From NCBI GenBank assembly GCA_016875335.1, contig VGRO01000004.1:32158-96157 (forward strand): a DNA stretch of 64,000 nucleotides, given 5' to 3'. The stretch comes from Deltaproteobacteria bacterium. Lineage in GTDB: Bacteria; Myxococcota_A; UBA9042. Made by a program: the position numbers and the translations under genes. The notes beneath the pieces were generated by a model. That model made no database searches, was not told the origin of the DNA, and worked only from the letters and a program-made list of their open reading frames with translations. Below are positions 28,818-58,168 of the stretch, piece by piece (positions within the stretch are counted from its first letter, which is position 1; the number at the start of each line of letters is the position of its first letter).

Positions 28818-28897
28818 CGACGCCACCACTGCCCGCGGCGCAAAACCGGGCCGCACGCCGCCAGTGTGCCACGCAGGCCGGCCGGGGTCCAAAACGC

Positions 28898-31231
28898 CTA
28901 CTTGGCGCAGGCTTTCAGCGTGATCGAGGTCAAACTCCAGTATTTCGGCACGATTTTGCCCGCCGACGGCGCCTTGAGGTTGGCGCCCCCGAAGTTGGCC
29001 AGGTCGCAGCTGGGCCATTTGACTTGGGTCACCCACCACATTTCACACTCGTTCATCGGCTGGTCGAACTTGGCCTTGAGCGCGCCCATGCAGTAGATGC
29101 GCACCGTCGCGGTGCTGGGCGAGCTGCTGTTGAAGCCGTGCGCGTCCCAGAAGTGCACGCCGACGCCGTAGTCCACGCCGTTCTCGGGCAGTTGCAGGTT
29201 CATGTTCTCGGGTCCCCAGCCGTTGGTGTCGTCGAGATCCAGGCTCGGGTCATCCGTCTGCAAGGCTGCGTTGCCCCACTTCGGGGCCGGGTTGATCCAG
29301 TACACGTCGTACACGCCATTGAACCACGGGTCGGTCTGGCCGTCCTTGTCCAGGTCGGGCTGGCAGTTCTTGGTGACCGTCGCGCTGCACTGTTGGGCTT
29401 GGTAGGCCTTGCTGTGCACCACGTGCAAGTCGAGGTCGGCGCCCTCGGCATTGGGCCCGTCGTCCTGCACGGTGTCCTCGGGGGTGTTCCACAGCAGCTC
29501 TACGTGGAAGGCCACGCTCGGCACCACCAGCACCGACAGGACCGCGGGCGCGCACGATTCGGTGCCACTGTCGTCCCACACCTGCAGCTTGACCTTGTAC
29601 TCGCCGGCTACCGTCAGCCACACGATCGGGCTGCCGTCGGGCTTGGTCCCCGGCACGCCCAACTGCACGTCGGCGGAGGTGTCGTTGGGGTGGAATTTGA
29701 CGCCGACCGCGCCGGCCGGGGCGTCGAGCAGCGTCCACTTGTACTTGACCACCTTTCCGGGCGGCGCGGCGTAGCTGGCAGACCCTTTGAGCTTGAGCGG
29801 CATCTGCGGTTCGATCTGCTCGCCCGGCTCGGGAACGATGACCGGCGTCGGGCACTTGGCCGCGTTACCGGTGCACGATAGCGTAATGGTCTTGTTGGGT
29901 TTCGCCGTCGAGTCGACCAGGTCCAGCTTTGCCGTGAACGGCTGGTTGACCCCGGCGCTGTCCTTGTTCTCGCTCGGTGGCGTACACGCGATGTCGAGCG
30001 TGGCCTTGCCGTTCTTGGCCAGGACCGTCGGCTGGTCCGGGGTCGGCAACTTCGCGTTCTTGAAAGCGTAAACGCCAGCGGTGTCGCCCGCGATCTTGGC
30101 CGAGTTGATCTGCACCTCGCCTTCGCCGCAGTTGGTCAGCGTCACGGTCTTGACCGACTCGGTGCCGACGTACACTAGGCCGTGATCCAAGGCTTTTTCT
30201 GGCTTGACCAAAAGGCACGGCACGTTGAGATTGCCGGCCAACTGCACGGTCGCCGCGCCGGCCGCGTTGCTGGTCAGCGTCAAGGTCGCCTTGCGTCCCT
30301 TGTCGTCGATGGGCGCGAAGACCACTTCGCCGTCCAGGCTCTTGCCCGGTTCAATCAGGATCGGCGGGGCGAAGGTGACGTCCTTGTCGCCCGTCGCGGT
30401 CTTGCCACCAAGCTTGACGGCAAAGGTCTTGTCCTGCAGGGGCCACTGGATGCCGGTGACCTCCAGCATCGCCTCGCCGGTATTCTGAACCGCCAGCGCT
30501 TGCACCGAAGGGGGAGCCCCCGGGGCGACCACGGCGAAATCGACGAACTGCGGCGCTACGTTGATTGCGGGCTTGCCCTGCTTGGTCTGCACGGCGAATT
30601 GCACGAAAGTCTGATCCGGGTCACCATCGGACTTGATCTGCACGTTCACGGACTTGGGCAGGTTGTCGGTCTTCTCGAAGCGGATGACGAAGCGGGCGGC
30701 GTCGATCGCCTCGCGGGTCGTACAGGCCGCCTCGAAGTCCTTGGGCACGATCGACCCCCATGTGTGGTCCTTGCACAGCACCGCGACGCCGTTCTTCTTG
30801 ACGATCTTGCCGTCCTTGTCGGCCGCGAGGCACGAAAACGCCGTCTCGCCGGCCGGCGCCACCACCTCGATCTTGCCGATGAGCAGTTCCAGCGCGGCGC
30901 TGGTCTGTGCCTCATTGGAGATCTGGAAGGCCGTGTCCACGGGCGGACCGCCGATCGTGGTCGCCGCGGCATTGACCACCACCGGGACCGTCGGGTTGAC
31001 GGCGGTCAGGCCCTGGCGCAGTTGCAGCTTGGCCTTGCGGTCCAGGCCCGTGGTGTTGTCCTTGTCGAAGCTGCATTTCTTGGCCACGACCGCGCCGCCG
31101 TCCGGACCCGTGCCCGCGCCGGTTCCCGACGACCCCTCCGACAAACAGGACGCCAAGGCGGCCAGGCACACCAAGGCCCCCGCGATCGCCGCGCTCGCGG
31201 CCGACCGCCCGTTGCAACGCATCTGCATCAT
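28898..31231 (-). CDS. large secreted lipoprotein, paralog 2 of 3
   Basis: Start MMQMRCNGRSAASAAIAGALVCLAALASC. DUF1573-like repeats (FVDFAVVAPGAPPSVQALAVQNTGEAMLEVTGI; LDHGLVYVGTESVKTVTLTNCGEGEVQINS). C-terminus ELLWNTPEDTVQDD...DLDLHVVH...DLDKDGQTDPW...LDLDDTNGWGPEN...VGVHFW... Confidence 0.7.
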   Translation of the reverse strand: MMQMRCNGRSAASAAIAGALVCLAALASCLSEGSSGTGAGTGPDGGAVVAKKCSFDKDNTTGLDRKAKLQLRQGLTAVNPTVPVVVNAAATTIGGPPVDTAFQISNEAQTSAALELLIGKIEVVAPAGETAFSCLAADKDGKIVKKNGVAVLCKDHTWGSIVPKDFEAACTTREAIDAARFVIRFEKTDNLPKSVNVQIKSDGDPDQTFVQFAVQTKQGKPAINVAPQFVDFAVVAPGAPPSVQALAVQNTGEAMLEVTGIQWPLQDKTFAVKLGGKTATGDKDVTFAPPILIEPGKSLDGEVVFAPIDDKGRKATLTLTSNAAGAATVQLAGNLNVPCLLVKPEKALDHGLVYVGTESVKTVTLTNCGEGEVQINSAKIAGDTAGVYAFKNAKLPTPDQPTVLAKNGKATLDIACTPPSENKDSAGVNQPFTAKLDLVDSTAKPNKTITLSCTGNAAKCPTPVIVPEPGEQIEPQMPLKLKGSASYAAPPGKVVKYKWTLLDAPAGAVGVKFHPNDTSADVQLGVPGTKPDGSPIVWLTVAGEYKVKLQVWDDSGTESCAPAVLSVLVVPSVAFHVELLWNTPEDTVQDDGPNAEGADLDLHVVHSKAYQAQQCSATVTKNCQPDLDKDGQTDPWFNGVYDVYWINPAPKWGNAALQTDDPSLDLDDTNGWGPENMNLQLPENGVDYGVGVHFWDAHGFNSSSPSTATVRIYCMGALKAKFDQPMNECEMWWVTQVKWPSCDLANFGGANLKAPSAGKIVPKYWSLTSITLKACAK

Positions 31232-31277
31232 GGTCCTTCTCTGGCGGCGGACGAGCGCGGTCCGCGCGCTGCGGCGG

Positions 31278-33656
31278 CTACTGGGTCTTGCACTGGGTGG
31301 CTGCGCCACCGACCGACCCGTTGAAGACCTTGTTGACGTAGCACTTGGTGATGCACCAGTCGCCCTTTGGCTGCCACATCAGGTTCTTCTTGGCCGGACA
31401 CGAGTAGCCCGATTGGTAGCAGGTGTCGAACACCTTCTTGCTGCCGCCCGATGCGGTGTTCGGCCAGTTGACGCGACCGACGAACCACATGTCGAGCGGG
31501 TCCATCTTGACCTTGGTGAACTGCAAGGCCAAACCGCCCTGGATATAGATGGACACGGTGGCGTAAGAGGTGCCGTAGCCGTGGTCGTTCCAGTAGTGGA
31601 CGCCGACGTGGTAGGCGACCGGGTCGTCGACCGTGCCCTCGGGATCGACCAGGTTCAGGTTCTCTGGACCGGCGCCGTCGGTGTCGTCCAGGTCCAGGGT
31701 CGGGTTGTCCTTGGTGTTGCCGGCGCCGCCCCACTCGGGCGCTGCGTTGAACCAGAACGTGTCCCACGGGTTGCTGAACCACGGATCGGCCTGGCCGTCG
31801 CAGTCCAGGTCGAGCGTCGAGGCCAGCGGGTGCGCAAAGTGCAGGTCGAGGTCGGCGCCGGCCGCGGGGCCGCTGTCGGTCTGGTCGGGGTCCGATGGCG
31901 TATCCCACAGCAGTTCGATGTGCAGGGCGTTGTTGGGGATGACCAGCACCTTCTGGCACGCCGGCACGCACGACTTGCTGTCGTTGGCGTCCCAGACCTC
32001 CAAGCAGAACTCGTATTCGCCGGACGCGTTGGCCAAAATCGACGGGTTGGCGAAGGACGCATTCGGCAACAACGGCTGGTTCGACCCCGCGGGCTGCTTG
32101 ACCGTCCACTTGTACTTCTTGATGGTGCCGCCGCCCGGGGCCTGTGACTTGTCGCCCTTGAGGTGGATGGTGGTCTGCGGCACCACCTGCTCGCCTTCGA
32201 CGACGATGACCTTGGCGATGGGGCAGGTGACCTTGACGCCCACGCCCTCGAGCTGCAACTTGGGCGAAACGAACGCATTGGACTTGACCGTGAGCACCGC
32301 GATGTCGGGCGGCTGACCGTCTTCGGTCAGGTCGCTCGGCGCGTAGGCGACCTTGAACGTGGCCTCGCCGTTGATGGGCAAGGTCATCGGGTTGTCGGCG
32401 CTGATGGGGCCGGTGCCGTTCTTGGTCTTGGAGAAAAGCGGCGTCTGGTCGATGGCGAATTCGTTGCTCTTGGTCTCCCCGGCGATGAAGTCGATGCTGG
32501 TGACCACCAGATCGACCGAACCGCAGTTCTTGATCTTGACCTCGGCGGTCCCGGGGGTGCTGCCCGGCACGGCGCCACCAAAGTTGTACTTGCCGGTCGG
32601 GGTCATGCACAGCGCCGGCACCGCGGTGTTGCCGTAGATGTCGAGCTTGCGGCTGGCGGTGTCGGGATCGGTGCTCTCGAACTTGACCGTGCCCGACTTC
32701 TTCTTGTCGTCCTTGGGCGCGAAGATGACCTCGAACTGCGCCGACTTGCCCACGTCGATTTCGAGCGGTTTGGCGAAGAGCCAGGGCTTGCCGCCCTGAT
32801 GGGCCTCGGTGTCGTGGTCGGCCGGGTCGACGAGCTTGATCGTGTACGCGGGATCGACCTCGGCCATCTTGATCGAGGTCAGCGTCAGCACGGCGTCGCC
32901 AGCGTTGACGGCCTGAAAGGTCTTGGGTTCGGTCTTGCCCGGTTGGGTATAGGGGAAGATCAGACCGTCGGCGGGCTGCAGCTCGAGCTTGGGCTTGCCC
33001 TGCTCGGTCTTGACGGTGAAGGAGAAGGTGCGATCGGACACCTCCTTCATGCCGCCAAGGTGCAGCGTGACCTTGGCCGTCCGGTCCTTGGCGTCAAAGC
33101 GCGTAAAGCGCACGTACAGGCTTTCCTTGTCCGCCTGCCCCGTCTTGGGCGTCAGGCCGACCGGGACGACCTCCTTCCAGGTGGTCTTGTCGCAACGGGT
33201 GGTCAGCGCGGCGTCGTGGAAGCACTCCAGGCTTTGTTTGTCAGGGGTTTCGTCTGGGCTGCCGGGGTTGTAGCCAAACTCGACCTTGGAGATCTTGAGC
33301 GAGGCGGCGTCGGACACGCTCTTGGTGTTGCGAATGAGCACCTGCAGCGCTTCGGTGCTCTTGCCCAGCTTGATCGAGCCCACCGACAACGCGATCGAAC
33401 CAGCGGGGGTCACGGTCTTGCCGAGCGAGGGCACCGTCAACTGGACGGCTGCGTTGCAGTCGATGGCCACGCCCGCGGCCGACACGCCGGTGCCCGACAA
33501 GCACGCGAATTCGCCGATTTTGTCGTTGCTGCCGGGTTTGTCGCCGCCGGGGCCGGAGCCGCCGCCCGGCAACCCGGAGTTACAGGCGGCGGCGAGCGCC
33601 AGGGCTGAGGCCAGCCACAGAGCGCGGGTCGTGCGGTCGGCAAGGCGGGTGTTCAT
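31278..33656 (-). CDS. large secreted lipoprotein, paralog 3 of 3
   Basis: Start MNTRLADRTTRALWLASALALAAAC at 33656, with a GGAG RBS. Same repeat/C-terminal architecture: ELLWDTPSDPDQTD...DLDLHFAH...LDCDGQADPW...LDLDDTDGAGPEN...VGVHYW... Confidence 0.7.
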   Translation of the reverse strand: MNTRLADRTTRALWLASALALAAACNSGLPGGGSGPGGDKPGSNDKIGEFACLSGTGVSAAGVAIDCNAAVQLTVPSLGKTVTPAGSIALSVGSIKLGKSTEALQVLIRNTKSVSDAASLKISKVEFGYNPGSPDETPDKQSLECFHDAALTTRCDKTTWKEVVPVGLTPKTGQADKESLYVRFTRFDAKDRTAKVTLHLGGMKEVSDRTFSFTVKTEQGKPKLELQPADGLIFPYTQPGKTEPKTFQAVNAGDAVLTLTSIKMAEVDPAYTIKLVDPADHDTEAHQGGKPWLFAKPLEIDVGKSAQFEVIFAPKDDKKKSGTVKFESTDPDTASRKLDIYGNTAVPALCMTPTGKYNFGGAVPGSTPGTAEVKIKNCGSVDLVVTSIDFIAGETKSNEFAIDQTPLFSKTKNGTGPISADNPMTLPINGEATFKVAYAPSDLTEDGQPPDIAVLTVKSNAFVSPKLQLEGVGVKVTCPIAKVIVVEGEQVVPQTTIHLKGDKSQAPGGGTIKKYKWTVKQPAGSNQPLLPNASFANPSILANASGEYEFCLEVWDANDSKSCVPACQKVLVIPNNALHIELLWDTPSDPDQTDSGPAAGADLDLHFAHPLASTLDLDCDGQADPWFSNPWDTFWFNAAPEWGGAGNTKDNPTLDLDDTDGAGPENLNLVDPEGTVDDPVAYHVGVHYWNDHGYGTSYATVSIYIQGGLALQFTKVKMDPLDMWFVGRVNWPNTASGGSKKVFDTCYQSGYSCPAKKNLMWQPKGDWCITKCYVNKVFNGSVGGAATQCKTQ

Positions 33657-33959
33657 GGTGCGGCTCCTGCGGAGTGCGGGTTGCGTTGTTTCGTTGGAAG
33701 CGAAGGAGTCAGAAGTTGGCCTGCGCTCGTCGTGGCGTTTGGCCGGTGGCCGTCGGGGTCTGTGGTCCCATCCAGGTCTGCGTTCCCATCCAGGTCTGCG
33801 TTTACTGGGCGCTTGCGGCGCGTACGGTGATGCCGCGGCGCCAACCGCAGGCACAACCTCCCGACTGTAACGGCGGGTCCGCGACCCGTCAACCACAAAA
33901 CGACGCCCAAAATCGGACCCGTGGGCGCGCTGGGGCCGACAGGCCCACGCTCGGCCCGT

Positions 33960-35531
33960 TCAGTCGCCGCCGGTCGGCACCTGATACCACTTGCGGGTCC
34001 ACTCGGTTAGCATGTTGTCGTCGGTGACAAAAGGCGTGTGCAACGTGCGCTCGACCAGTTTGGCGCAGGTTTCGGCCTGGCCGCCGTCGGGGCCGTAGGT
34101 GCTCTGGTCGGCGAGGCGCAAGATCTCGTCCAAGCGGCCGCGGTGCTGGGGATTGGCGAGATCGAAGATCTTGCGGCCGTCGACCACGATCTTTTCCAGT
34201 TCGGCGCGCCAGCGGTCGCGGTCGAGGGCGACCGGTTCGTCGCTCAAATACATGAAATTGATGATGCGCAGGCCGTGCTTGAAAGCGCCGCAGCCGGTCT
34301 TTTGCGCCGTCTCGCTCCAGGTAGTGTTGTAGACGAAAAGCCCGCCGGGGTTGAGGTGGTCCTTGACCAACTGCAGGTATTCCATGCTCAGCAGGTCGGT
34401 GATGTTGCCGCGCCAGTGCCAGGTGGTGTTCTGCAAGACCGTGTCGAACCTTTCTTTCGGGTGCGCGCGCAGCCAGCGGCGGCCGTCGTCGAACACCAGA
34501 TGGACTTTGGGGTTCTTGAGCAGCGACTGCACCTCGGGGAACTTGGCGACCAGCTCGGGGTAGCCGGGGTTGATCTCGACCACCGTCAGATCGGTCACGC
34601 CGGGCAGGTGCGCCACGACCTGCGCCCACGACCCGGACGACAAACCGATCATCAACACTTTCCCTGTATTGCGCGGCAAGCCCGCCAACGCATAGGCTCG
34701 CACGATCAGATTGCGATCGTGCACCACGTCGGTATTGAACACCCCGTCGTACATGCCGCCGCCATAGATCGCGCCGTCTTGGGACACGGTGATGACGCCT
34801 GAACGGTTCTCGACGACGTGGGCGAACTGCTGGCCCTGGTACTTCTTCTTCCACATCAGCCGTTCGTAGAGGCCCGCGTGCAAGCCGGGGCCGGCGAGCG
34901 CCCCGACCACGGCAAAGAGCGGCAACACCATCACGCCCACGGCCTTTTGCACGGGCTCGGTCGAACTCGCCCACCACAGGATCGACGTCAACACGACGCC
35001 CAGGACCATCAGCAGCGCGGAAATGTGTGGCAGCGGTAGCCATTGCATCAGCACAAAGCCGGTGAGCAGCGACCCAGTGACGCTGCCGGCGATGTTGGCG
35101 AGGTAGAGGTAGCTCAGTCTTTCGCCGACCTGCGCATCGGCGGCGATGCCGTAATGGGCGACCAGCGGCAAGATGGCGCCCATCAATCCAGCCGCAAGTG
35201 CGACGGCCGCGAGCGAAAACGCGTACGTGGCGAACGTCACCAATTGCGCCACCGCCGGCGCGAGGAGAAAGCTGACCGCAGTCGAGGCGAGCACCAGCCC
35301 CGCCGGCCAGCGCAGCCGCTTGGGGTCGCCGCCGACGCCGACCTCGTCGCAGACTTTGCGGGCGCCCAGGCTGCCCAACGCGATGCCGGCCAGATACGCA
35401 CCGAGCATGACGGCAAAACTGGACGGCGCGCCGCCGGTCAAGAAGCCATAGACGCGAAACCACACCATTTCGTAGGAAAGTGCGACGTATCCGGCGAGAC
35501 CGGTGACCAGCAGGGCCAGGCGAAATGACAT
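33960..35531 (-). CDS. membrane-anchored polyamine aminopropyltransferase (spermidine synthase-like with N-terminal ~7-TM domain)
   Basis: N-terminal 200 aa are hydrophobic helices. The C-terminal domain has spermidine-synthase motifs (VLMIGLSSGSWAQVV; TVVEINPGYPEL; VFDDGRRWL). This architecture is known from Mycobacterium SpeE. Confidence 0.8.
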   Translation of the reverse strand: MSFRLALLVTGLAGYVALSYEMVWFRVYGFLTGGAPSSFAVMLGAYLAGIALGSLGARKVCDEVGVGGDPKRLRWPAGLVLASTAVSFLLAPAVAQLVTFATYAFSLAAVALAAGLMGAILPLVAHYGIAADAQVGERLSYLYLANIAGSVTGSLLTGFVLMQWLPLPHISALLMVLGVVLTSILWWASSTEPVQKAVGVMVLPLFAVVGALAGPGLHAGLYERLMWKKKYQGQQFAHVVENRSGVITVSQDGAIYGGGMYDGVFNTDVVHDRNLIVRAYALAGLPRNTGKVLMIGLSSGSWAQVVAHLPGVTDLTVVEINPGYPELVAKFPEVQSLLKNPKVHLVFDDGRRWLRAHPKERFDTVLQNTTWHWRGNITDLLSMEYLQLVKDHLNPGGLFVYNTTWSETAQKTGCGAFKHGLRIINFMYLSDEPVALDRDRWRAELEKIVVDGRKIFDLANPQHRGRLDEILRLADQSTYGPDGGQAETCAKLVERTLHTPFVTDDNMLTEWTRKWYQVPTGGD

Positions 35532-35559
35532 GGGCGGCCTTGGGGCGAAGGTTGCGGGA

Positions 35560-35910
35560 TCAGTCCTCGCCGTCCAGGTCGGCCCACAGCAGGCGCGACA
35601 GGACGAGATCGTGCAGATCCTCGGGCACGGGGTGGGCGCTCAACAGCACCGGCGCCGCGGCGACAGCCCGTGCCAGTTGGCCGGGATCGGCGATGGCCCG
35701 CAGGCGCACCACGCCGTTTTCATTCTCCAGCAGTGCGCTCGGACCCGAGGTGCACGCCGACAGACAACTGGACCGTCCGACCTCTGCCGTCGCGCCCTGG
35801 GCCTTGGCCGCTTTCTTGGCGGCGGAGGTCATGCGGGCCAGCGACGCCGTCGGCGCAGGGCGCGGACAGCCGGAGCACAGGTGGATGCGCAGGTGGACGC
35901 CGTCGCTCAT
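35560..35910 (-). CDS. small Cys-motif protein (thioredoxin-like [2Fe-2S] ferredoxin-like / DUF1636-like); start overlaps the upstream stop (ATGA)
   Basis: MSDGVHLRIHLCSGCPRP...SSCLSACTSGPSALLENENGVVRLRAI (CxxC ... CxxxC-GP). Its ATG at 35910 overlaps the TGA of the LolA-like gene. Confidence 0.45.
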   Translation of the reverse strand: MSDGVHLRIHLCSGCPRPAPTASLARMTSAAKKAAKAQGATAEVGRSSCLSACTSGPSALLENENGVVRLRAIADPGQLARAVAAAPVLLSAHPVPEDLHDLVLSRLLWADLDGED

Positions 35911-36692
35911 TTGCCGAGCGCCTCGGGCACAAACATCGATTCGGGCAGCGGGGTCTTTTGGTCGACGTCGCGGGTCTCGACCGTGGTCACCGAGTTGCGC
36001 AGGTGGTTGATCATCCGAAACTTCTTCATCACCGTTCGGCCTGGCTCGCCGGCCTGTACCTGATCGACGACGAGCGTCTTGACGTGGGCGCCGGCCTTGT
36101 CGAAGAAGTTGATCTGCCGCGCCAGCCACAGCCGTTCGTCGATCCACAACTGCACTTTGCCGTAGGCATCTTGCCCGTCGACGATCGCCACGTCGATGCG
36201 GGTGCACGGCGCCCCGCCGATGGCCTCGCTGCCGGCCAGCTTGGCCTCGCCGGTCTGCAGCCCGCGGCCCTGCAGGTCACCGAAAGAGAAATCGGTGCCC
36301 ATGAAGGCTTCGTTGCGCTGCGAGCCGCTGATGCGCCGCAGCCGGCCGGTCTTGGGCAGCCACAGGTACTGGCTGGCCGCGCCGCCGCCCTCTTCGAGGA
36401 TGAGCAGTTCGGTGCCGACGGCGTCCGCAGGCTCCAGGAAGGTGACCCGCGACTTGAGGCGTCCGTCCTTGCCTCGCAATACCCGACTCAACGTCAGCCA
36501 CGTCTTGGACTTGCCGCTGGCCAGGGTCAGCGTGACCGACGTCTTGCTCTGGCCGGCCTGAAAGCCGCTGGCGTTGCGGTCGTTGGTCGCCTGCAACACT
36601 TTGCGTGCGGCGGGATCGTCGGCGCCCAGCGCGGGCAAGGACAGGGCCATCGACAAGATCGCCGCGGCGGCCAAGAAAAGATGCATGTCCAC
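35907..36692 (-). CDS. LolA-like outer-membrane lipoprotein-sorting family protein (periplasmic)
   Basis: Signal peptide MDMHLFLAAAAILSMALSLPALGA. Family-typical segments ...YLWLPKTGRLRRISGSQRNEAFMGTDFSFGDL... and ...KVQLWIDERLWLARQINFFDKAG... Confidence 0.65.
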   Translation of the reverse strand: MDMHLFLAAAAILSMALSLPALGADDPAARKVLQATNDRNASGFQAGQSKTSVTLTLASGKSKTWLTLSRVLRGKDGRLKSRVTFLEPADAVGTELLILEEGGGAASQYLWLPKTGRLRRISGSQRNEAFMGTDFSFGDLQGRGLQTGEAKLAGSEAIGGAPCTRIDVAIVDGQDAYGKVQLWIDERLWLARQINFFDKAGAHVKTLVVDQVQAGEPGRTVMKKFRMINHLRNSVTTVETRDVDQKTPLPESMFVPEALGK

Positions 36693-36707
36693 CTCGCGAC
36701 CGCGCGC

Positions 36708-37516
36708 CTACGCCGGCCGTGCGTGCAGCCACGCCTTGGTGCGGGCGTGTTCGGGGGCGCGCTCGGTGCGCTTGACCCGGTAGCCGCAGCCGCGCGAAAT
36801 CAACTGCACCGTGTGGGCGCGACCCGGGAAGGCCGCCTGGAGTGCGGCGAGCACCGCGTCTGTGTCGAAGAACTTGCAGGAAAAAATGTCGAAATACGCG
36901 CGCTGGCTGGCCAGGTCGATGTGCACGGCGATGTGCGATTCGGCGATCATGGTCATCGCCGACAGCCAACTGGCGCCGTCGGGCCCGGCGGCATCGGTCG
37001 ACCGCAGCACGTAGGGCCGCATGATCGGCGTCATGTCGATGCGCGGCGGCAGGTTGTCGAAGAGGTGGAAAAGGCCGTCCATGTCGCTCGGGCCGCAGTA
37101 GCCGTCGATGTTGAGCAACAGGTGCGGACCAAAGTCCTCGCTCGGGTGGACCGGCACCTCGTCGAACGGCCGCGGTCGCCGGGCGGTGTGAACCTCGACG
37201 GAGCGGACCGGCAGCGCGTTCTGGATGTAGGCGTTGGCCTCGTGGACGTCGAAGGCCCGCGGCGCGACCAGATCGACGAAGTAGCACTCGCGAAAGCTGA
37301 AGGTGTGCAAAGTCAGGTGGCCGCCCGGCAGCAATACGAACGCGCTGATGCCGCAGTCGTCGGGTTCGACACCGTTGTAGTACGGCAACAGCATCGGCGG
37401 CATCGCCGGCTGCAGCCCGAGGCGCGCCGGCAGCTCCTCGACCAACTCGTGGATCAACCGGATGTCGTCGAAGCGCGATCGGTGACCGCCAAAGCCATCG
37501 AGCGTATAGTGCAGCA
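36708..37516 (-). CDS. pyruvoyl-dependent AdoMetDC-family decarboxylase, tandem (pseudo-dimeric) fusion
   Basis: Real start MLHYTLDGFGG at 37516; the listed ORF 36708..39254 runs on upstream. The first half has a degenerate HLTLHTFSFRE motif with no Ser. The second half has the processing site AESHIAVHIDLASQRAYFDIFSCKFFD (ES↓H). Confidence 0.7.
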
Positions 37517-37583
37517 TGGTTCCAGGCGCGCGGCGATGGGGTTGTGGGCCGCGGGGCGCGCAATTGTGGCAGAGGTCGCGGTG

Positions 37584-39209
37584 GTGCAAAAGGGGTGCGG
37601 CGCGCAGTTCAGCCGGAGGCGTTCGGCAACGCGTGGGGCCTGCGCGGCGCTTGCGCTGGCGGCGTGGGCCTGTCCGGACCAGACGGCGGCCGATCCGATC
37701 GACGCATCGGAGGCAACGACCCCGACCGCGGACGACCCAGCGGACTTTGGAGGCGATGCGCCGACCGAGGCGCCACCGGCGGGCCCGACGCTTTTTTGGG
37801 GCGCGTGGGTGGGAGCGATCGGCGTCGACTTGGGCGCCGAGGATCCGGCTGAGGATGTGCTGACACTGCGCAACCGCCTGGAGTTGGACGTCCAGCATCC
37901 GCTGCCCGGCGGGCTGCAGACCCGGGTCAGCGCCAGGCTGCTGCACCGCGCCCAAGTCGGCCATGAGGGCGGCGTGCACAGACCGGCTTTTCGCGCAAGT
38001 CTGCCCGATCTGGGCATGCGCTACGACCTCGACAGCCAACTGCGCCACGCCCATGTGCAGTGGTCCGCCCCGTGGGGCCGGCTGACCGTCGGGCGCGACA
38101 CCGCCCAGTGGGGTGCGCTGGAGCTGCAGAGCGCGCTGCGCTTCTTGCAGCCGATGGATTTCAGCAACGGGCTGGTCGGCAGCCTCGCCAACCCGGACGA
38201 GTCCCCGCTCTTGCCCACGCTGATGGCGCGCCTGGAGCGTCCGGTCGGACCCGGCCAGCTCGACCTGGTGTTCCTGCCCTTCTTCGACCAGCACCGCTAT
38301 TCGCCGTTTGCCACCGACGCTGCGTTCGTGCGGCCTGGTCAGGGTCCAGAGCTTTCCGGGTCGATAGGGGCCGTGCTGCGGCGCCTCGACCTGCGGCTGG
38401 ACCGCCAGCTCTCGCAAGCCCTGATGATCGCACTGCAACCGCCGAGCGACACCCCGCTCGACGGCTCGCCGGCCGCGCGCTGGCGGGTGCCGATCGGTCG
38501 GTTCGACGTGGCCCTGGTCGCGGCCTGGACTTGGGATCGCCTGCCTGAGCTGCAATTGGACGCGGACCTGCTGCTGCTGCTGGCGCGCACCGCCGACGCC
38601 GGCTTCGACACAGCCCGGCTGGCGGCGATGTTCGCCGATCCGCAGGTGGCCGCCGCGGCCGACCGCGCCAAGGGCAAGTCGGTGCGCGATCTGGCCAAGG
38701 CGACCTGGCGCCGCCGTGGCATCGTCGGTCTGGAGGCCCAGGGTGAGGTGGCCGAGGGCTGGGTGGCGCGCGGCGAGCTGGCGTGGAGCCACCAGCGGGT
38801 CTTCATGGACACTGGGTTTCGGCCGCTGTTGTCGCCACTGGCCCAGGCCGGCGCCGGGCTGGAGCGCAGCTGGGGGGACCGCGTCGTCGCCCTGGTCGAG
38901 GTCGCAGGCCAGTGGGCCTACCGCGTGCCGGCGGACACGGAGCTGATGTTGGCGGCGGCGGTGCAATGGCAGGTGGGCGGCGGGGTCATCGTGCGGTGGG
39001 GTGAGGCCGACGCCTGGACCGGACAACTGGGCGGCACCTATGGCCTGACATTGCGCGACTGGGCCGTCGCGCCGCGGCTGAGCTGGCAAGCGGGTGATCG
39101 TTGGACTGCGGCGTTGGCCGCCGTGATCGCAGACGGACCGCCCAATTCCATCGGCGGCTGGTTCGGGGCGGACGATCAGGTGATCGTGGAACTGCGGCGC
39201 ACGTTCTAG
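37584..39209 (+). CDS. hypothetical lipoprotein, possibly an outer-membrane beta-barrel (C-terminal ...VELRRTF)
   Basis: Downstream part of listed ORF 35670..39209. Putative GTG start with ...RGACAALALAAWAC lipobox. Sequence is rich in W/Y/F and ends in Phe. The upstream part of that ORF is an antisense shadow. Confidence 0.45.
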   Translation: MQKGCGAQFSRRRSATRGACAALALAAWACPDQTAADPIDASEATTPTADDPADFGGDAPTEAPPAGPTLFWGAWVGAIGVDLGAEDPAEDVLTLRNRLELDVQHPLPGGLQTRVSARLLHRAQVGHEGGVHRPAFRASLPDLGMRYDLDSQLRHAHVQWSAPWGRLTVGRDTAQWGALELQSALRFLQPMDFSNGLVGSLANPDESPLLPTLMARLERPVGPGQLDLVFLPFFDQHRYSPFATDAAFVRPGQGPELSGSIGAVLRRLDLRLDRQLSQALMIALQPPSDTPLDGSPAARWRVPIGRFDVALVAAWTWDRLPELQLDADLLLLLARTADAGFDTARLAAMFADPQVAAAADRAKGKSVRDLAKATWRRRGIVGLEAQGEVAEGWVARGELAWSHQRVFMDTGFRPLLSPLAQAGAGLERSWGDRVVALVEVAGQWAYRVPADTELMLAAAVQWQVGGGVIVRWGEADAWTGQLGGTYGLTLRDWAVAPRLSWQAGDRWTAALAAVIADGPPNSIGGWFGADDQVIVELRRTF

Positions 39210-39401
39210 TTTCTTGCGGCCAGCCTCCGGCTGCTGCCGGCTGCCGCCGTCCAAAAAGTCAAACGCGCCCCCGGTCCAGGCCGCCGCCGCCTTTCTTTCG
39301 GAGGCGACGACGGTCGGATCGGTTGCGCGTTGATCGGCTGCGCCGCGAGTCCGGCCCTGCGGGGAGGCAGAGCCAGCCGTGGCCGTCGCGAGGTCGTGGG
39401 G

Positions 39402-39686
39402 CTACTTGATGTGCTCGACGCCCTGCTTCTCGACGGTGGCCTTCCACACCTTCTCTGGCAGCCACTTGGGGCGGTTCGCCGGAGCGGTGACTTCCTTGCG
39501 GCCGCCCTTGAACACGTGCACGCGCTTGGTGCCGCGCTCGCGCAGGCGGATTTCGGTGTAGCCGCGGGCGGCAGCCTTGAGCGCGGCGCCGCGCGGTTGC
39601 GCGTTGGAGAACACGATGTTGGTGTCCTTGCCGTTCTCCATCAGCACGAAGTTCTTCTTGTCCTTGGCGGGCTTGTCGTCGGCCAT
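39402..39686 (-). CDS. non-histone chromosomal protein MC1 family (archaeal-type) DNA-binding protein
   Basis: 95 aa from ATG 39686, with GGAGG 6 nt upstream. MADDKPAKDKKNFVLMENGKDTNIVFSNAQPRGAALKAAARGYTEIRLRERGTKRVHVFKGGRKEVTAPANRPKWLPEKVWKATVEKQGVEHIK aligns with Methanosarcina MC1 (KRNFALRD..G..HGVF.G.QPRQAALKAA.RG...IRLRERGTKKVHVF.G.R.EV..P.N.P.W.P). Confidence 0.7.
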   Translation of the reverse strand: MADDKPAKDKKNFVLMENGKDTNIVFSNAQPRGAALKAAARGYTEIRLRERGTKRVHVFKGGRKEVTAPANRPKWLPEKVWKATVEKQGVEHIK

Positions 39687-40314
39687 GTTGCCTCCAGTTG
39701 CTTTGGGACTGCATTGCGCGCAGTCAGTTGTGCGACGGCCGCGCGGGCGGCCTTCGGTCCAGATCACCTTGCCTGGGCGCACCGACGCCGGGGGAAAGGG
39801 CGCCCGTCGGGGGGCGACCCTGTCTTGGCGACAGTACGGCGACCCGCCGATCGCGCCTGGACGGACCGACTCCCGTCAGCCGGCCGCAGCGCTGGATCGC
39901 GGTCGCGGCGCGCATTGCGCCCTTGGCGCGCTGTATCGGCCGATTCGCGCAAGATTGCAAGGGGGCACGCGGCGCGGGGCGCAGATTCGCTCAAAAAAGC
40001 CGAGACCGGGTCTGGACGAGCGCAGTAGACGATAAGCGGCGCAACCTGCGATTCCATCGATATTACACGTATTTTAGAGTATCGTCTCCGGTGCGAGCGA
40101 CGCGAACAGGGCCGCTGTGGGGTTGTGATCACGATCCGTGCCACGTGATCACGGCCCGCGGCTCCGGCCTGCGCGGCATGGTCGAATCGCCAGCCGCCGT
40201 GCTACGGTCGCCCCATTGCGGCGCACCGCGCCCAGGGGATCGATCCTGCCCGTGTCCGCCGCCCGGCCCAGCGCGACGTGTTCCCCGAACCGGCTGCGGC
40301 GGTGGCTGGCCCGG

Positions 40315-42825
40315 GTGAGGTCGTGGCTGTCGCTCATCCTTGTGGCTGCGGTGGTCGGTTCGCTCGCGCCGCAGCGCACGGCCGAGGCCCGCCCGGGCCG
40401 GGTCAACCGCGCCAAGGACGAGGCCGCTTCACCGAGGCGCGGGAGCAAGGCTGCGCCGGCCGCGCGCGCCCGCTCGGCCGCCAAGCCCAAACCGAACCGC
40501 ACGGCCAAGGGCGCCGTCCACCGACGAGGCGAGCGCGGCCGCGACAAGCCGGGCAAGCTGCGCAAGGTGCGGCCGGCGCCTCCCGGCAAGCGAACCACGG
40601 CCAAGCCGGTGCCCGACCTGGAGCCGTCTGCAGCCGACGACCCTCACCCCGACCCCGCCGGCCTGCCAGTCGCGGCGACCTGGAGCGAGCTGCACCGGGT
40701 GGTCCAGTTGTGGCGCGTGGGCAAAACCGGGCGACTCGCCGAGGAGTTGCAGCACCTGCAGCGCGCCAAAGACAAGGACCTGGCGGCCGCCGCATCCCAC
40801 GTGTTGGCGCGGGTACTGGCGCGCCACGGCCAGGGTACGGCGGCGGCCAAGGCGCTGGCCCGGTCCCGGATCGTCGCCGACAGCCTTCCCGCCGCGCACC
40901 GCTGGGCGGGCATTGAGGTGGCACAGGCGCAGGGCAAGTCCAAGGTGGCCCTGGACAAGCTGCGGTCGTTCCGCGCCGATTTCGGCAGTTTTCGCTGGGC
41001 AGCCGCCGACCTGCTGTATTCGCGCCTGCACGAAAAGGTCGGCCCTGCCGAGGCGGCGGCGCAGACAGCGCTGGCCCTTTACGACAAGAGCGCCGAGCAC
41101 CTGCCGCGCGACGAGCTTTTGGCGCGCGCGGCGCGGGTGCTGCAGGCCGTCGACCGCGCACGCAGCGACCAACTGTGGAAAAAACTGATTCTGACGCACC
41201 CCGAATCGCAGTTCGTGGACGAGGCGGCCGAGCGCGTGGCGCTGGCCTCGCTCAGCGACGCCGAACAGTTTGACCGCATGGTGACGCTGTTTTCGCGGCG
41301 GGCCTACGAGCGCTGCCGGTCTGTGGGCGTGCAATTGTGGGTCAAAGGCTACCGACGCAACGAAGTCGGCTATTTTTTGGGCAAGATCGGCAGCGAACGG
41401 CTCAGGGACGACTACCCTGGGGCAGCGATGTACCTGGCCGAGGCGGCCACCCCCGACGCGCCGCTCTACCAGAACGCGCTGCCGTCGTACGCGCTGGTGC
41501 TCGGCAAGATCGGCAAGACCGACGAGGCAATCGCCCGCTACGATCAATGGCTTGCGCGCTTTGCCGGGGCCAAGAACGACCGCCGCATCGACCTGCACTA
41601 CGACCGCGCGCGCACCTTGCACATGGCCGGCCGCAGCCTACAAGCAGCCCGCGATTTGGGCGCGGCCCTGGACCAGGACGACAAGGACATCGACGTCGGC
41701 AAGTACCGGTGGTTCGTCGGCTTCTGGACCCTGCTGGGCGGCCGACCTGCCGAGGCAATTGACCTGCTCAAACCGCTGATGCCCAACACAAATCCGCTGG
41801 TGGGCGCCAAGGCGCGCTATTGGGTGGCCAAGGCACAAGACCGGCTTGGCGATCGCAAGGCCGCGACCGAAACGCTGCTGCAACTGGTCGACAAGTACCC
41901 GCTGACCTACTACAGCGGCCTGGCCGAGAACCTCTTGGAGGACTGGGGCCTCGGCGACAAGCTGCCGCCGCGGGAGGATTTTTCGAAGGTCCCGGTAGCC
42001 GTGACCGACCCCTTCGCAGGCATGCGGATGAACGACAACCTGCGGTCGCTGCGCATCGCCTGCGCGCTGGGCGAGCCAGACGTGGCACGGACGGCCTGGG
42101 ACACGCTGCAGGCGGGCTTGCGCATGGAGCTGGGAGCCGAGCGCCTGCGCAAGCTGCGGCTGGACCTCTCGGATGCGCTTGAGCTGTTCGCCGACGCCCG
42201 CAGCGACGCCCTGCGCAACCACCGCGACGTGCTGCAGCGGATGCCGACCCGCGACACCCTGGCGGCGTGGCGAGGCATCTATCCGCGGGCCTTTGCCACC
42301 CACGTCGTCGCCGCCGCCGAACGCTGGGGCGCGCCCGAATGGATGGTCTACGCCCACATGTTGCAGGAGTCAGCGTACCGACCGGAGCTCATCTCTGGAG
42401 CGCCGGCCTATGGCCTGCTGGAGCTGCTCGACCGCACCGCGCAGCGCCTGGCCAGCGAGGCCCGCGAGGACTACCAGTTGTGGATGCTGATGTGGCCCGC
42501 CCACAACGTGCGGTGGGGCACCCAGTACCTGGCGGCGCTGTACAAGAAGTTTCACCGCCAGTTGCCGTTTGCGATCGCGTCGTACAACGGCGGCCCGATG
42601 TTGCTGCAGTACCACATGCGGCAGCAGCACAAGCTCAGTCGCGGCTTCGACGAAATGATCGACGACCTCGGCCCGCACGAGTCGCGCAACTACGTGCGGA
42701 TGGTCATCGGTCACTTCTTGCGCTATCTGGCGATCTACGAGAAGCCCGACCGCGCCAAGGCGTACCGCAATCAGTTGCTGCCGCGGGCGTGGCAGGACGC
42801 CTACCTGGCCGACCCGGACTATTGA
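40315..42825 (+). CDS. soluble lytic murein transglycosylase (Slt family) with long N-terminal superhelical domain
   Basis: C-terminal SLT domain (VYAHMLQESAYRPELISGAPAYGLLELL; ASYNGGPMLL). Putative GTG start 40315 gives signal MRSWLSLILVAAVVGSLAPQRTAEA; the listed ATG 40138 gives an R-rich leader. Confidence 0.75.
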   Translation: MRSWLSLILVAAVVGSLAPQRTAEARPGRVNRAKDEAASPRRGSKAAPAARARSAAKPKPNRTAKGAVHRRGERGRDKPGKLRKVRPAPPGKRTTAKPVPDLEPSAADDPHPDPAGLPVAATWSELHRVVQLWRVGKTGRLAEELQHLQRAKDKDLAAAASHVLARVLARHGQGTAAAKALARSRIVADSLPAAHRWAGIEVAQAQGKSKVALDKLRSFRADFGSFRWAAADLLYSRLHEKVGPAEAAAQTALALYDKSAEHLPRDELLARAARVLQAVDRARSDQLWKKLILTHPESQFVDEAAERVALASLSDAEQFDRMVTLFSRRAYERCRSVGVQLWVKGYRRNEVGYFLGKIGSERLRDDYPGAAMYLAEAATPDAPLYQNALPSYALVLGKIGKTDEAIARYDQWLARFAGAKNDRRIDLHYDRARTLHMAGRSLQAARDLGAALDQDDKDIDVGKYRWFVGFWTLLGGRPAEAIDLLKPLMPNTNPLVGAKARYWVAKAQDRLGDRKAATETLLQLVDKYPLTYYSGLAENLLEDWGLGDKLPPREDFSKVPVAVTDPFAGMRMNDNLRSLRIACALGEPDVARTAWDTLQAGLRMELGAERLRKLRLDLSDALELFADARSDALRNHRDVLQRMPTRDTLAAWRGIYPRAFATHVVAAAERWGAPEWMVYAHMLQESAYRPELISGAPAYGLLELLDRTAQRLASEAREDYQLWMLMWPAHNVRWGTQYLAALYKKFHRQLPFAIASYNGGPMLLQYHMRQQHKLSRGFDEMIDDLGPHESRNYVRMVIGHFLRYLAIYEKPDRAKAYRNQLLPRAWQDAYLADPDY

Positions 42826-47187: not shown

Positions 47188-47205
47188 CAACCCCGCACCG
47201 CGCCT

Positions 47206-52097: not shown

Positions 52098-53678
52098 ATG
52101 GCCGACCCGCCCCCCGACCTGACCGCCCGACCCCAGCGCCTCGACGCCGCACTGCCGTGGCTGGCGGGCGTGCCGTTGTGCGCGCTGGCCTTGCAACCGA
52201 TCTCCGATTCCGACGTGCCGATGCATGCGGCGGTGGGCCGGTGGATGCTGCGGCAGGGCGCGATCCTGCCCACGCCGGACCCGCTGGTGTGGACCGACCG
52301 CGGCGGCGATGCCCCGCACGAGTGGCTGGCGCAGGGGGTGCTGGGCGCCGTGGCCGATGCTGCAGGCCTTGGTGCGCTGCGCATGGTGTTGCTGGCGCTG
52401 GCGGTCGGCTGCCTGTTGCTGCTGGCGCGATCGCTGCGCCGGGCGGGCGCGGGACCGGCCGCGACGGCCGCACTGCTCGTCGGCTGGACTGCCGCCGTCG
52501 CCCCGCACCTGGCGATGCGCCCGCACGTGTTCGGCTGGTGGGCGGCGCTGGCGGTCCTGGGACTCGGGCTGGCCGACCCGCGGCCGTGGTCGCTGCGCTG
52601 CGCGGTCGGCTGGGGCGTGGCCACGGCACTGTGGGCCAACCTGCACAGCAGCGCGGTCGCGGCGCCGTTGTATGCCGCGCTGGCCTGGGTGGACGCCGCC
52701 TGGCATGCCCGCGCCGACCTGCGGGGCGCCTGGTGGCGGCAGCCGACCCTGCGCTGGATCGCGGTCGCGGCGGGCGCCCTGTGTCAGCCGCTGGGGCCGG
52801 GCATCGTCCCCTACGTGTTGCGCTCTCAGGCGATCAACGGCCCGTTGAGCGACGAATGGCAGGGGCTGTTGCGCGCCGACGTGTTGCGCGATCACCCGCA
52901 GGTCGTCGCCGTATGGGCCGCGGCGGCCGTCGCCGTGGCGATGGCGCTGCGGACACCGCGACTGTCGTTTCCGGGGGTGGTTGCTGCCGCATTCGCCCTG
53001 GCACACGCAGCGTGGACCCGGCGCATGACCGTGTTCCTGTTCGTGCCGGCGTTGCTGGCCGGCCGGCGCTGGGGCCAGTGGCTGGGCTGGCGGCCGCTCG
53101 CTTGGGTCGCAGTCGCCATGGCGTGGGCGGCGTGGGTGCCAGACGCGGTCCAGCGGGCATGGTCGCTCCCGGCGATCGACGGCCGGGTGTTCCCGGTCAA
53201 GGCGGCGGCGTTCCTGCACCAGACTGGGCTGCGCGGCCGCCTTTTCAACCCCGACCCCTGGGGCGGCTACCTCAGCTGGCAACTTGCACCGCAGTACCAG
53301 GTGTTCCTGGACGGCCGATGGCTGCTGGCCGGCGAGCAGGTGGTGCGCGACGGCCTGGCGATGCAGATCCGGCGGCCAGGTGTGGACGCGTTGTTCGAGC
53401 GCTACGGCATTGAGGTGTTCTTGCAGCGCACGGCCGACTACGTGCAGGTGCCGCCGCCCGACCCGACCCGCTTTGCCCTGGCGTGGCGCGACGGCCAGGC
53501 CGTGGTCCTTGTGCGCAAAGGTCCGAACTGGATGGACAATGTCGCCAAGGTCTGTGCGTTCTATCGCAGTTTTGCGTGGCTGGCGCCGCACGGGCGATGG
53601 GCGGGGTCGCTGCGCGGCGCTGCGGGCCAGCCCAGCCCGACCGACGTGCCCGAGGTCATGGCCGGCTGCGGGCCATAG
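52098..53678 (+). CDS. polytopic integral membrane protein, GT-C-like (putative polyprenyl-phosphate-sugar-dependent glycosyltransferase)
   Basis: Start MADPPPDLTARP at 52098. At least 10 hydrophobic helices. An acidic first-loop motif (PISDSDVPMH) resembles GT-C DD/DE loops. Convergent with the DprE1-like gene. Confidence 0.45.
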   Translation: MADPPPDLTARPQRLDAALPWLAGVPLCALALQPISDSDVPMHAAVGRWMLRQGAILPTPDPLVWTDRGGDAPHEWLAQGVLGAVADAAGLGALRMVLLALAVGCLLLLARSLRRAGAGPAATAALLVGWTAAVAPHLAMRPHVFGWWAALAVLGLGLADPRPWSLRCAVGWGVATALWANLHSSAVAAPLYAALAWVDAAWHARADLRGAWWRQPTLRWIAVAAGALCQPLGPGIVPYVLRSQAINGPLSDEWQGLLRADVLRDHPQVVAVWAAAAVAVAMALRTPRLSFPGVVAAAFALAHAAWTRRMTVFLFVPALLAGRRWGQWLGWRPLAWVAVAMAWAAWVPDAVQRAWSLPAIDGRVFPVKAAAFLHQTGLRGRLFNPDPWGGYLSWQLAPQYQVFLDGRWLLAGEQVVRDGLAMQIRRPGVDALFERYGIEVFLQRTADYVQVPPPDPTRFALAWRDGQAVVLVRKGPNWMDNVAKVCAFYRSFAWLAPHGRWAGSLRGAAGQPSPTDVPEVMAGCGP

Positions 53679-55826: not shown

Positions 55827-55889
55827 GGAGGTCCCGGGCCGCCGCAGCGGCTGCTGGGCGCGGATTGCACGCCGGTCCCTGCCTCCGTG

Positions 55890-56648: not shown

Positions 56649-56651
56649 GGA

Positions 56652-57989: not shown

Positions 57990-58168
57990 GGCGTTCCTTG
58001 ATGAATCGGGTCGTTGCAGCAGCCCGGCGAACTGCCGACGGCAAGGGCTGAAGGCGGGGCCATGCTGCGTTCAGAGAACCAAGCGCGGCCTGCACGCCGC
58101 GTTCGGCCGCACCGTCCGCGACCGGGCGATTGTACACACCCACCTGGTCGGCGCAAACGTTCTTATTT

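Follow-up and report, generated by a model that had tools for sequence, protein, structure and literature searches.

Published bacterial SpeD1-SpeD2 fusions, known from Desulfotignum phosphitoxidans, Ca. Omnitrophica OLB16, and Victivallis vadensis, are proteins of ~270-320 aa with two domains of the class-1b S-adenosylmethionine (AdoMet) decarboxylase (AdoMetDC) fold, in which the N-terminal half is an active AdoMetDC and the C-terminal half is an ornithine decarboxylase (ODC) or is degraded, and a normal speE lies downstream of the fusion gene (Li et al., JBC 2023, PMC10407285). The present study concerns a locus in a 64,000-nt stretch of DNA (the window) from a Deltaproteobacteria bacterium (GCA_016875335.1, contig VGRO01000004.1, positions 32,158 to 96,157), in which a minus-strand gene (36708..37517) is predicted to encode a pseudo-dimeric decarboxylase that belongs to the AdoMetDC/SpeD superfamily and is of the pyruvoyl type. 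The window protein (269 aa) resembles these fusions in its size and two-domain organization and, as in the Victivallis fusion, in which one half is catalytic, only one of its halves is predicted to be so. However, its halves are in the reversed order, with an N half (37164..37517) that lacks the processing site and a C half (36783..37142) that is predicted to be catalytic. In contrast to the published fusions, its "dead" half is extremely conserved, and its gene partners are envelope proteins rather than a normal speE. No description of a reversed-order SpeD fusion was found in the literature searched.

One pyruvoyl site per pseudo-dimer is also characteristic of the eukaryotic class 2 AdoMetDCs (human, 1msv/1jl0; potato, 1mhm) and the T. 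brucei AdoMetDC/prozyme, in which the non-processing half likewise keeps an active-site Ser and His. The window protein differs from these enzymes in that its active half is C-terminal, it has no similarity to PF01536, and it consists of 269 rather than about 330 aa; its one-site arrangement appears to have arisen independently from class 1b. A widespread and uncharacterised decarboxylase family would then be a one-site pseudo-dimer with a half order opposite to that of the eukaryotic AdoMetDC and of the published bacterial fusions. The reversed order bears on the model in which the eukaryotic AdoMetDC originated from a SpeD fusion, and suggests that the one-site design evolved more than once. 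As far as may be judged from sequences, it is the reversed one-site SpeD architecture and its gene association that are new, the kinds of protein themselves being known.

Considering this architecture together with the conserved gene neighbourhood, we favour, with a probability of about 0.5, a reading of the locus as a composite transcription unit, in which a one-site pyruvoyl decarboxylase is functionally coupled to an envelope pair of the DUF1302/DUF1329 type and to a DUF1636-like accessory protein, with a non-canonical spermidine synthase (SpdSyn)-fold protein having been added recently. The decarboxylase would cleave itself between E193 and S194, as its invariant motif suggests, to form the pyruvoyl cofactor. 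In the single active site, the C half would provide the pyruvoyl group and Cys214, and the N half, by homology, Ser58 and His71 in trans. Its substrate would be cytoplasmic, with AdoMet and a basic amino acid as the two candidates, and the resulting amine, as such or in a derived form, may feed an envelope-directed process via a LolA_like carrier and a DUF1302-like barrel, a step for which gene order is the only ground. A small protein with four Cys residues (the 4-Cys protein) may serve as a metal or Fe-S accessory of the decarboxylase.

The two halves of the decarboxylase

The Pfam profile AdoMet_dc (PF02675) matched the decarboxylase in two stretches (75.3 bits vs. a cut-off of 25, E 5.7e-21), and the profiles of the N and C halves were aligned with each other by hhalign over 107 columns (97.7%, E 2e-12), which indicates that the halves are homologous. 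The AlphaFold (AF2) model obtained from 30 relatives (pLDDT 92.5, pTM 0.90) contains the same strand-helix pattern twice. In Foldseek, each half matched the AdoMetDCs of T. maritima and Aquifex (TM-score 0.77-0.82), and scores of 0.80-0.82 were obtained for the decarboxylase against 1tmi and 1vr7. An initial annotation of this locus, made from the letters of the window, had proposed a tandem fusion of two AdoMetDC-like halves, each expected to fold as an AdoMetDC, and both proposals were borne out by these results.

Regarding the active site, the C half contains E193-S194-H195, H199, and C214, all of which are invariant in the 30 relatives. Residues G65-G66 of the N half stand opposite E193-S194, and Cys214 has no counterpart in the N half, in agreement with the earlier view that the processing Ser is missing from the first half and the ES|H site is kept in the second. 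The predicted self-cleavage and pyruvoyl-forming residue, Ser194 of the AESH motif, is encoded by the codon read at 36936..36938 on the minus strand. The Glu-Ser site, His, and Cys of the C half are the set that is common to functional SpeD homologs (PMC10407285, Fig. S5).

The N half (residues 1-118) has its own set of invariant residues, namely D7, R13-S14-R15, Y46-Y47-N48-G49, D54-C55-G56, S58, G65-G66-H67, H71, and E77, and this "dead" half was found to be conserved at least as strongly as the active half. With so many invariant residues, the N half does not appear to be decaying, and its strong conservation suggests that it is more than a scaffold and takes part in substrate binding or regulation. 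In the human AdoMetDC, the non-processing half gives Ser229 and His243 to the single site, and Ser55 and His68 are the equivalents in T. maritima; S58 and H71 of the window decarboxylase are placed at exactly these positions. By analogy, the window protein is probably an enzyme with one active site, to which the N half contributes in trans.

We propose that the substrate of this enzyme is either AdoMet or a basic amino acid. With the SpeD equivalog profile TIGR03330, the decarboxylase scored 48.3 bits, which is under the cut-off of 75.65. The glutamate of the H-x-(W/F)-P-E motif was absent from the expected position in both halves (H71-T-F-S-F in the N half and H199-I-D-L-A in the C half); distant family members carry HVFP-x in the C half, and H-x-W-P-E is present in bona fide SpeD1 domains and in T. 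maritima SpeD. This glutamate corresponds to human Glu247, a ribose-binding residue. An attempt to assign the substrate by comparing half-domain hidden Markov models (HMMs) with SpeD1, SpeD2 (ODC), and T. maritima/B. subtilis SpeD was abandoned because the equal scores allowed no call. The C-half HMM gave 33.9 and 32.3 bits for two ODC domains, 34.1 for B. subtilis SpeD, and 25-30 for the other SpeD domains, with reference sequences that came in part from optical character recognition and that included no SpeDA. In the Pfam-scanned loci, none of speB, speY, aguA/B, or a second speD with speE was detected beside the decarboxylase gene, and the clustering of neighbours across loci revealed no shared polyamine neighbour. 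The association of this architecture with arginine or ornithine decarboxylases, as put forward in the initial annotation, cannot simply be carried over to the window protein: the published fusions have the reverse half order, and the present family is uncharacterised.

The conserved module and its envelope partners

A pair of DUF1302 and DUF1329 genes was previously reported to show cofitness with genes for an RND exporter and a BNR protein, and the export of an envelope component was proposed (bioRxiv 10.1101/072470); P. putida also requires DUF1302/DUF1329 on Tween 20 and on fatty esters, for which a part in the handling of fatty esters was proposed (bioRxiv 10.1101/2020.07.04.188060). In the window, a gene for a 542-aa protein (37581..39209, plus strand) is divergent from the decarboxylase gene. 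This protein had no direct match in Pfam or in PDB sequence searches. A full-library search with it retrieved 189 relatives, and all of the ten distant homologs examined (E 1e-34 to 2e-7 to the 542-aa query) passed the cut-off of DUF1302 (PF06980). Via these distant homologs, the 542-aa protein may be regarded as a remote member of the DUF1302 outer-membrane family; it begins with a signal-like segment and ends in Phe, as would be expected of an outer-membrane protein.

The gene downstream of the decarboxylase gene encodes a LolA_like (TP_0789-like) periplasmic protein of 259 aa (35907..36686, minus strand; ATG start with GAGG in front), for which a GTG is an alternative start (35907..36692). 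The product matched PF17131 (137.9 bits vs. a cut-off of 30, E 4e-40) and, just above the cut-off, DUF1329 (PF07044; 24.1 bits vs. 23.1), with 9tp6 and 3bk5 as relatives in the PDB. Its N-terminal hydrophobic segment (residues 1-23, ALG|ADD) is predicted to be a cleavable signal peptide with no lipobox Cys. The periplasmic LolA-like fold that had been noted earlier is supported by this match and the signal peptide. A DUF1302-type barrel beside a LolA/LolB-like gene of the DUF1329 type is the arrangement known for P. putida PP_0765/PP_0766 and Shewanella Sama_1588/1589. Both members in the window are remote in comparison, since the barrel is below Pfam detection and the carrier matches PF17131 better; moreover, whereas the pair is normally adjacent, the window genes are divergent, with the decarboxylase gene between them and no BNR or RND gene nearby. 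A link to this pair may provide a biochemical handle on two families that are known only from fitness screens, in which they were linked to the envelope or to the handling of hydrophobic compounds.

The third minus-strand gene (35560..35910) encodes the 4-Cys protein, which is 116 aa in length and predicted to be cytoplasmic. The CxxC...CxxxC motif described for it earlier was confirmed (C12, C15, C49, and C53), and its orthologs share CxxC...CLSGCxxG...VLSRxxW. The window protein had no match in Pfam, NCBIfam, or PDB sequence searches, and six of eight orthologs gave scores of 11.9-24.1 bits with the DUF1636 Pfam profile, which is under the cut-off of 31.6. The AF2 model (pLDDT 80.6) had the Aquifex thioredoxin-like [2Fe-2S] ferredoxin (1m2b and 1f37) as top Foldseek matches, albeit weak ones (E 0.018, TM-score 0.42-0.47). 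DUF1636 was previously tied to the thioredoxin-like [2Fe-2S] ferredoxin fold with the same atypical CxxC (PMC4520260). Three weak lines of evidence thus agree on a tentative description of the 4-Cys protein as DUF1636-like with a thioredoxin-like ferredoxin fold, and it probably assists the decarboxylase as an accessory that binds a metal or an Fe-S cluster. The Cys pattern, size, and predicted fold are similar to those of DUF1636 and the thioredoxin-like [2Fe-2S] ferredoxins (Aquifex Fd4, 1M2A); the window protein differs from these in being under the Pfam cut-off, in having a C-terminal VLSRxxW that is specific to its clade, and in having a cofactor that is only predicted.

The decarboxylase family contains at least 467 proteins, which were found in Myxococcota, Methylomirabilota, Bacillota, Armatimonadota, and Deinococcota, and its members carry the annotation "S-adenosylmethionine decarboxylase". 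A scan of one genome per species gave 148 decarboxylase loci. In the 80 of these that were retained, neighbours were examined by tblastn with the window proteins, and the 4-Cys protein by a motif search requiring all four Cys. The LolA_like gene was located downstream of the decarboxylase gene in 19 of the 80 loci, and a divergent DUF1302-like homolog (42-82% identity) was located upstream in 16. The 4-Cys motif was present in 16 loci and had a single position in the whole set of 80, directly 3' of either the LolA gene or the decarboxylase gene: it followed LolA in 14 loci and the decarboxylase directly in two (L017 and L018), in which there is no LolA gene. The order of decarboxylase, LolA, and Cys genes was maintained with gaps of 12-33 nt or overlaps in at least 16 loci. 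None of these partners was found in a locus with a decarboxylase of 59% identity or less. The outer flanks in the window (MC1, SLT, and PKD genes) were not kept in the module loci, which argues that the module does not merely reflect synteny of the whole neighbourhood. The conserved core consists of the divergent DUF1302-like gene and an operon for the decarboxylase, the LolA_like/DUF1329-like protein, and the DUF1636-like 4-Cys protein, and is restricted to a clade of mostly freshwater Myxococcota metagenome-assembled genomes (MAGs), in which the decarboxylase is 68-93% identical. The linkage of the LolA-like and Cys genes in related genomes, to which the initial annotation had attached importance, therefore holds with respect to the decarboxylase (19 and 16 of 80 loci, respectively).

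Several points weigh against functional coupling as we propose it. At 47-59% identity, the decarboxylase stands alone among unrelated, lineage-specific neighbours in more than 50 loci, with Methylomirabilota/Rokubacteria, Sorangium, Bacillota, Armatimonadota, and other Myxococcota as hosts, and since it stands alone in other phyla, its basic role needs no envelope genes. The coupling is based on gene order within one bacterial order, for which all of the genomes are MAGs, and in these the decarboxylase is far better conserved (68-93% identity) than LolA (48-87%), the outer-membrane protein (42-82%), or the Cys protein (27-78%). An RND or BNR partner of DUF1302/DUF1329 was not found in the window: when about 20 genes around the locus were scanned against Pfam, no RND, BNR, or canonical polyamine genes were detected. 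The lines pointing to DUF1636 and a ferredoxin fold are each weak, with sub-threshold Pfam scores and a Foldseek E of 0.018, and the assignment of residues in cis and in trans was taken from structural literature rather than from coordinates.

A more ordinary explanation is that the decarboxylase is a housekeeping polyamine enzyme, either a single-site AdoMetDC or an arginine/ornithine decarboxylase, and that the other genes are its neighbours by descent with no shared pathway. While this would account for a family that is widespread and stands alone outside the clade, for the much better conservation of the decarboxylase than of its neighbours, and for the differing neighbours elsewhere in the Myxococcota (genes for a methyltransferase, a radical SAM enzyme, and an aldolase), it does not readily explain why the gene order, tight spacing, and divergent DUF1302-like gene persist in at least 16 loci with different outer flanks, why the 4-Cys gene occurs only at this position, even in the two loci in which it directly follows the decarboxylase gene, or why the DUF1302/DUF1329 pair, which is normally adjacent, is arranged around the decarboxylase gene. 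We consider this explanation to be possible but somewhat unlikely, and retain the reading of a decarboxylase coupled to an envelope pair.

Among the surveyed loci, several variant contexts were envelope-, lipid-, or SAM-flavoured, none of which is decisive. In locus L012 (7956-11581), genes for a sigma factor of the ECF class and an anti-sigma factor of the zf-HC2 type, identified by Pfam, are co-directional with and directly upstream of the decarboxylase-LolA_like pair; L019 has open reading frames (ORFs) that match these sigma/anti-sigma genes in size and position and, by layout alone, are probably the same genes. Sigma and anti-sigma genes in this position hint at envelope-stress control of the decarboxylase-LolA_like pair. 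A FadL/TodX gene follows the module in L020. In another Myxococcota MAG (L032, 7975-12401), a B12-binding radical SAM gene, the decarboxylase gene, and a gene for a 512-aa PlsC-type acyltransferase are co-directional, which may represent a lipid-related setting for the same decarboxylase family, and in L030 the decarboxylase gene is flanked by genes for an aldolase and a SAM methyltransferase. We also looked for genes that regularly accompany the stand-alone decarboxylases of other phyla; the all-against-all clustering of flanking ORFs was swamped by shadow ORFs of high-GC DNA, and only lineage-specific neighbours emerged (a Rokubacteria SDR and kinases).

The membrane-anchored SpdSyn-fold protein

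Fusions of a membrane domain with SpdSyn are reportedly known from the work of Li et al. 2019, in which AdoMetDC and MFS-SpdSyn fusions are said to point to a polyamine-independent role of AdoMetDC, with a product that is expected not to be spermidine. The last gene of the window unit (33960..35531, minus strand) encodes a protein of 523 aa that matched Spermine_synth (PF01564; 34 bits vs. a cut-off of 22.9, E 2.7e-8) and, in PDB sequence searches, 1uir, 3anx, and 3o4f. It exceeded the cut-off of the NCBIfam model NF037959, "fused MFS/spermidine synthase" (54.6 bits vs. 40), and its close homologs bear this name; all SpeE equivalog scores were far under their cut-offs (TIGR00417, 36.9/249.55; PRK00811, 42.5/260; PRK03612, 66.1/472). 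About 6-7 hydrophobic segments, corresponding to half of an MFS-like domain, precede the SpdSyn-like domain, and a KKK-rich segment after the last transmembrane (TM) segment suggests, by the positive-inside rule, that the latter domain is cytoplasmic.

In an alignment with T. thermophilus SpeE (1UIR), GGGEG is replaced by GLSSG and IDLTDP by QNTTWH, such that Ser, Asn, and Trp occupy the positions of three SpdSyn aspartates, namely the Asp of GGGDG, which binds the amine of decarboxylated AdoMet (dcAdoMet), and both Asp residues of DSxDP. The motifs shared by 120 homologs are GLxSGSW, EINP, DDGRRW, and NTxxxWR, and the acidic signature residues are gone family-wide. With the three signature aspartates replaced throughout the family, aminopropyl transfer is improbable, and the protein is unlikely to be an aminopropyltransferase of the classical kind. 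Of the membrane-fused aminopropyltransferase originally envisaged, the SpdSyn fold, the TM domain, and the NF037959 membership stand, and the replacement of the three aspartates speaks against the activity. The large "fused MFS/spermidine synthase" group that this protein represents lacks the residues for aminopropyl transfer, and its name may mislead pathway reconstructions.

The family of the SpdSyn-like protein was examined at 85 loci, of which 80 came from a metagenome scan and 5 from look-ups. No SpeD-like, LolA-like, Cys, or DUF1302-like gene was present in the flanks of the 84 loci other than the one of the window lineage, and adjacency to the decarboxylase module was restricted to loci that are at least 87% identical to the window, in which the whole neighbourhood is syntenic. 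The decarboxylase-LolA-Cys module, in turn, occurs in at least 13 loci with no SpeE-like gene within 10 kb. As adjacency is confined to the window lineage and the module elsewhere lacks a SpeE-like gene, the membrane SpdSyn-fold gene is a recent addition to the module in the window lineage only. The co-occurrence of the LolA-like and Cys genes with a membrane SpeE, which the initial annotation had suggested as a check, was not observed in any of the other 84 loci; these genes track the decarboxylase instead. In most relatives (L090-L174), a paralogous TM half of ~200 aa is either fused N-terminally, resulting in forms of ~740 aa, or encoded immediately upstream with an overlapping start codon. 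The window protein is without this second TM half.

The pairs of AdoMetDC and "fused MFS/spermidine synthase" (NF037959) have in common with the window that a SpeD homolog is encoded beside a membrane-anchored SpdSyn-like protein. The window differs in that the adjacency is found in one lineage, there is one TM half rather than the usual 6+6, and the canonical aspartates are absent. In P. aeruginosa, the locus PA4773-PA4775 (speD2/speE2, PmrAB regulon) is said, according to Johnson et al. 2012, to make a polyamine on the outer-membrane surface under envelope stress. The likeness to the window is in concept only, both having a dedicated SpeD/SpeE-like pair and a connection to the envelope; the P. 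aeruginosa proteins, unlike those of the window, are single-domain proteins with canonical residues, and LolA-like, DUF1302, and DUF1636 genes are absent there.

These findings bear on a second alternative, close to the model of the initial annotation, in which an AdoMetDC supplies dcAdoMet to a membrane SpeE, which aminopropylates a membrane or envelope acceptor to give a lipo-polyamine or something similar, and the LolA-like protein shuttles the product across the periplasm. It would be a case of the polyamine-independent role of AdoMetDC with MFS-SpdSyn fusions. Such a pathway would be in line with the four co-directional genes with gaps of 28 nt or less in the window lineage and its closest relatives, a SpeE-like protein that exceeds the NF037959 cut-off, and a predicted cytoplasmic location of the SpdSyn-like domain, where dcAdoMet would be available. 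On the side of the decarboxylase, the ESH...H...C of bona fide SpeD is retained in the C half and the C-half HMM scores B. subtilis SpeD as high as any reference; however, the protein falls under the TIGR03330 cut-off (48 vs. 75.65) and the H-x-W/F-P-E glutamate is missing from both halves (HTFSF and HIDLA). Considering also the Ser, Asn, and Trp in place of the SpdSyn aspartates, the 84 other family loci with no SpeD-like, LolA-like, or Cys gene and usually a second TM half instead, and the 13 or more module loci with no SpeE-like gene nearby, we judge this alternative to be unlikely.

An extension of the preferred reading is a dedicated pathway in which the decarboxylase, DUF1636-like protein, LolA_like protein, and DUF1302-like barrel together synthesize an envelope molecule that bears an amine, either in the cytoplasm or in the inner membrane, and convey it to the outer membrane, with the SpdSyn-fold protein adding an alkylation in the window lineage. 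Conceivable molecules are lipid or glycolipid head groups that are decarboxylated or decorated with a polyamine; a lipo-polyamine product is speculation. If true, this pathway would reveal the first biochemical cargo for DUF1302/DUF1329 and a new substrate class for the AdoMetDC fold, and the enzyme with that fold would be an analogue of the eukaryotic one-site AdoMetDC that evolved independently and has its halves reversed. We consider the full pathway to be quite improbable.

The transcription unit and adjoining genes

The window has a G+C content of about 68%, and the closest relatives of its proteins are from MAGs labelled Deltaproteobacteria or Myxococcota, with 100% identity of the 4-Cys protein to FJ100_01720 and of the membrane SpdSyn-like protein to FJ100_01715. 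High-GC DNA yields many long spurious ORFs, several of which overlap these genes, and yet the notion that the ORFs or their domain resemblances are chance products may be dismissed with near certainty, as each of the four genes is represented in many assemblies by orthologs (27-93% identity), the G+C content at third codon positions (GC3) is gene-like, and there are strong Pfam matches and a confident structure model.

The four ORFs are closely packed on the minus strand at 33960-37517, and their high GC3 is that of real genes. The gap between the decarboxylase and LolA_like genes is 15 nt if the latter begins at the GTG and 21 nt if it begins at the ATG, the LolA_like and 4-Cys genes share an ATGA overlap (-4), and the gap between the 4-Cys and SpdSyn-like genes is 28 nt. 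A terminator-like hairpin with a T-run is located 3' of the last gene (33905..33918, minus strand; a consensus match only), and the gene downstream of the hairpin has a promoter-like site of its own. The small gaps and overlap, the hairpin, and the separate promoter-like site make the co-transcription of the four minus-strand genes plausible. The four-gene cluster of the initial annotation is consequently real, with ORFs, GC3, and Pfam matches in agreement, and the co-transcription that it deduced from the spacing is held to be plausible, while its reading of the cluster as a polyamine-type operon is supported only in part. Of the gaps that it listed (15, -4, and 29), the overlap is correct, the first applies with the GTG start, and the third is 28; its right boundary of 37516 needs to be moved to 37517, where the ATG of the decarboxylase gene is located. 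Its four genes belong to the unit as described, and the divergent DUF1302-like gene of the conserved module had been overlooked.

A riboswitch or leader RNA ahead of the decarboxylase gene was considered and rejected: an Rfam scan of positions 33000-40500 of the window at E<=1 detected tRNA only, with no such element upstream of the decarboxylase gene, and a scan at the gathering score revealed no riboswitch upstream of the gene in seven distant decarboxylase loci.

Beside the DUF1302-like gene, a homolog of the archaeal chromatin protein MC1 is encoded at 39402-39782 (minus strand; PF05854, E 1.3e-28). It is 82-94% identical in the closest relatives (L001, L010, and L011), and its start is probably an internal Met (MADDKPAK...). 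Directly downstream of the operon, at 26622-33896 on the minus strand, are consecutive genes for three paralogous secreted proteins or lipoproteins of ~800-870 aa, which contain PKD/Ig-like domains and have a Cys-rich C-terminal region in common; two of them are kept, in close relatives only. A second decarboxylase locus, unrelated to the present finding, is located at 53659-58070 (minus strand) and comprises a Pyridoxal_deC PLP-dependent decarboxylase, a TauE/SafE-type exporter, and a FAD_binding_4 oxidase. A very long ORF of ~2214 aa with gene-like GC3 is present at 10435-17079 (minus strand), and an 800-aa protein with two Radical_SAM stretches is encoded at 47188-49587 (plus strand), after an M20 peptidase gene and a YaeQ gene.

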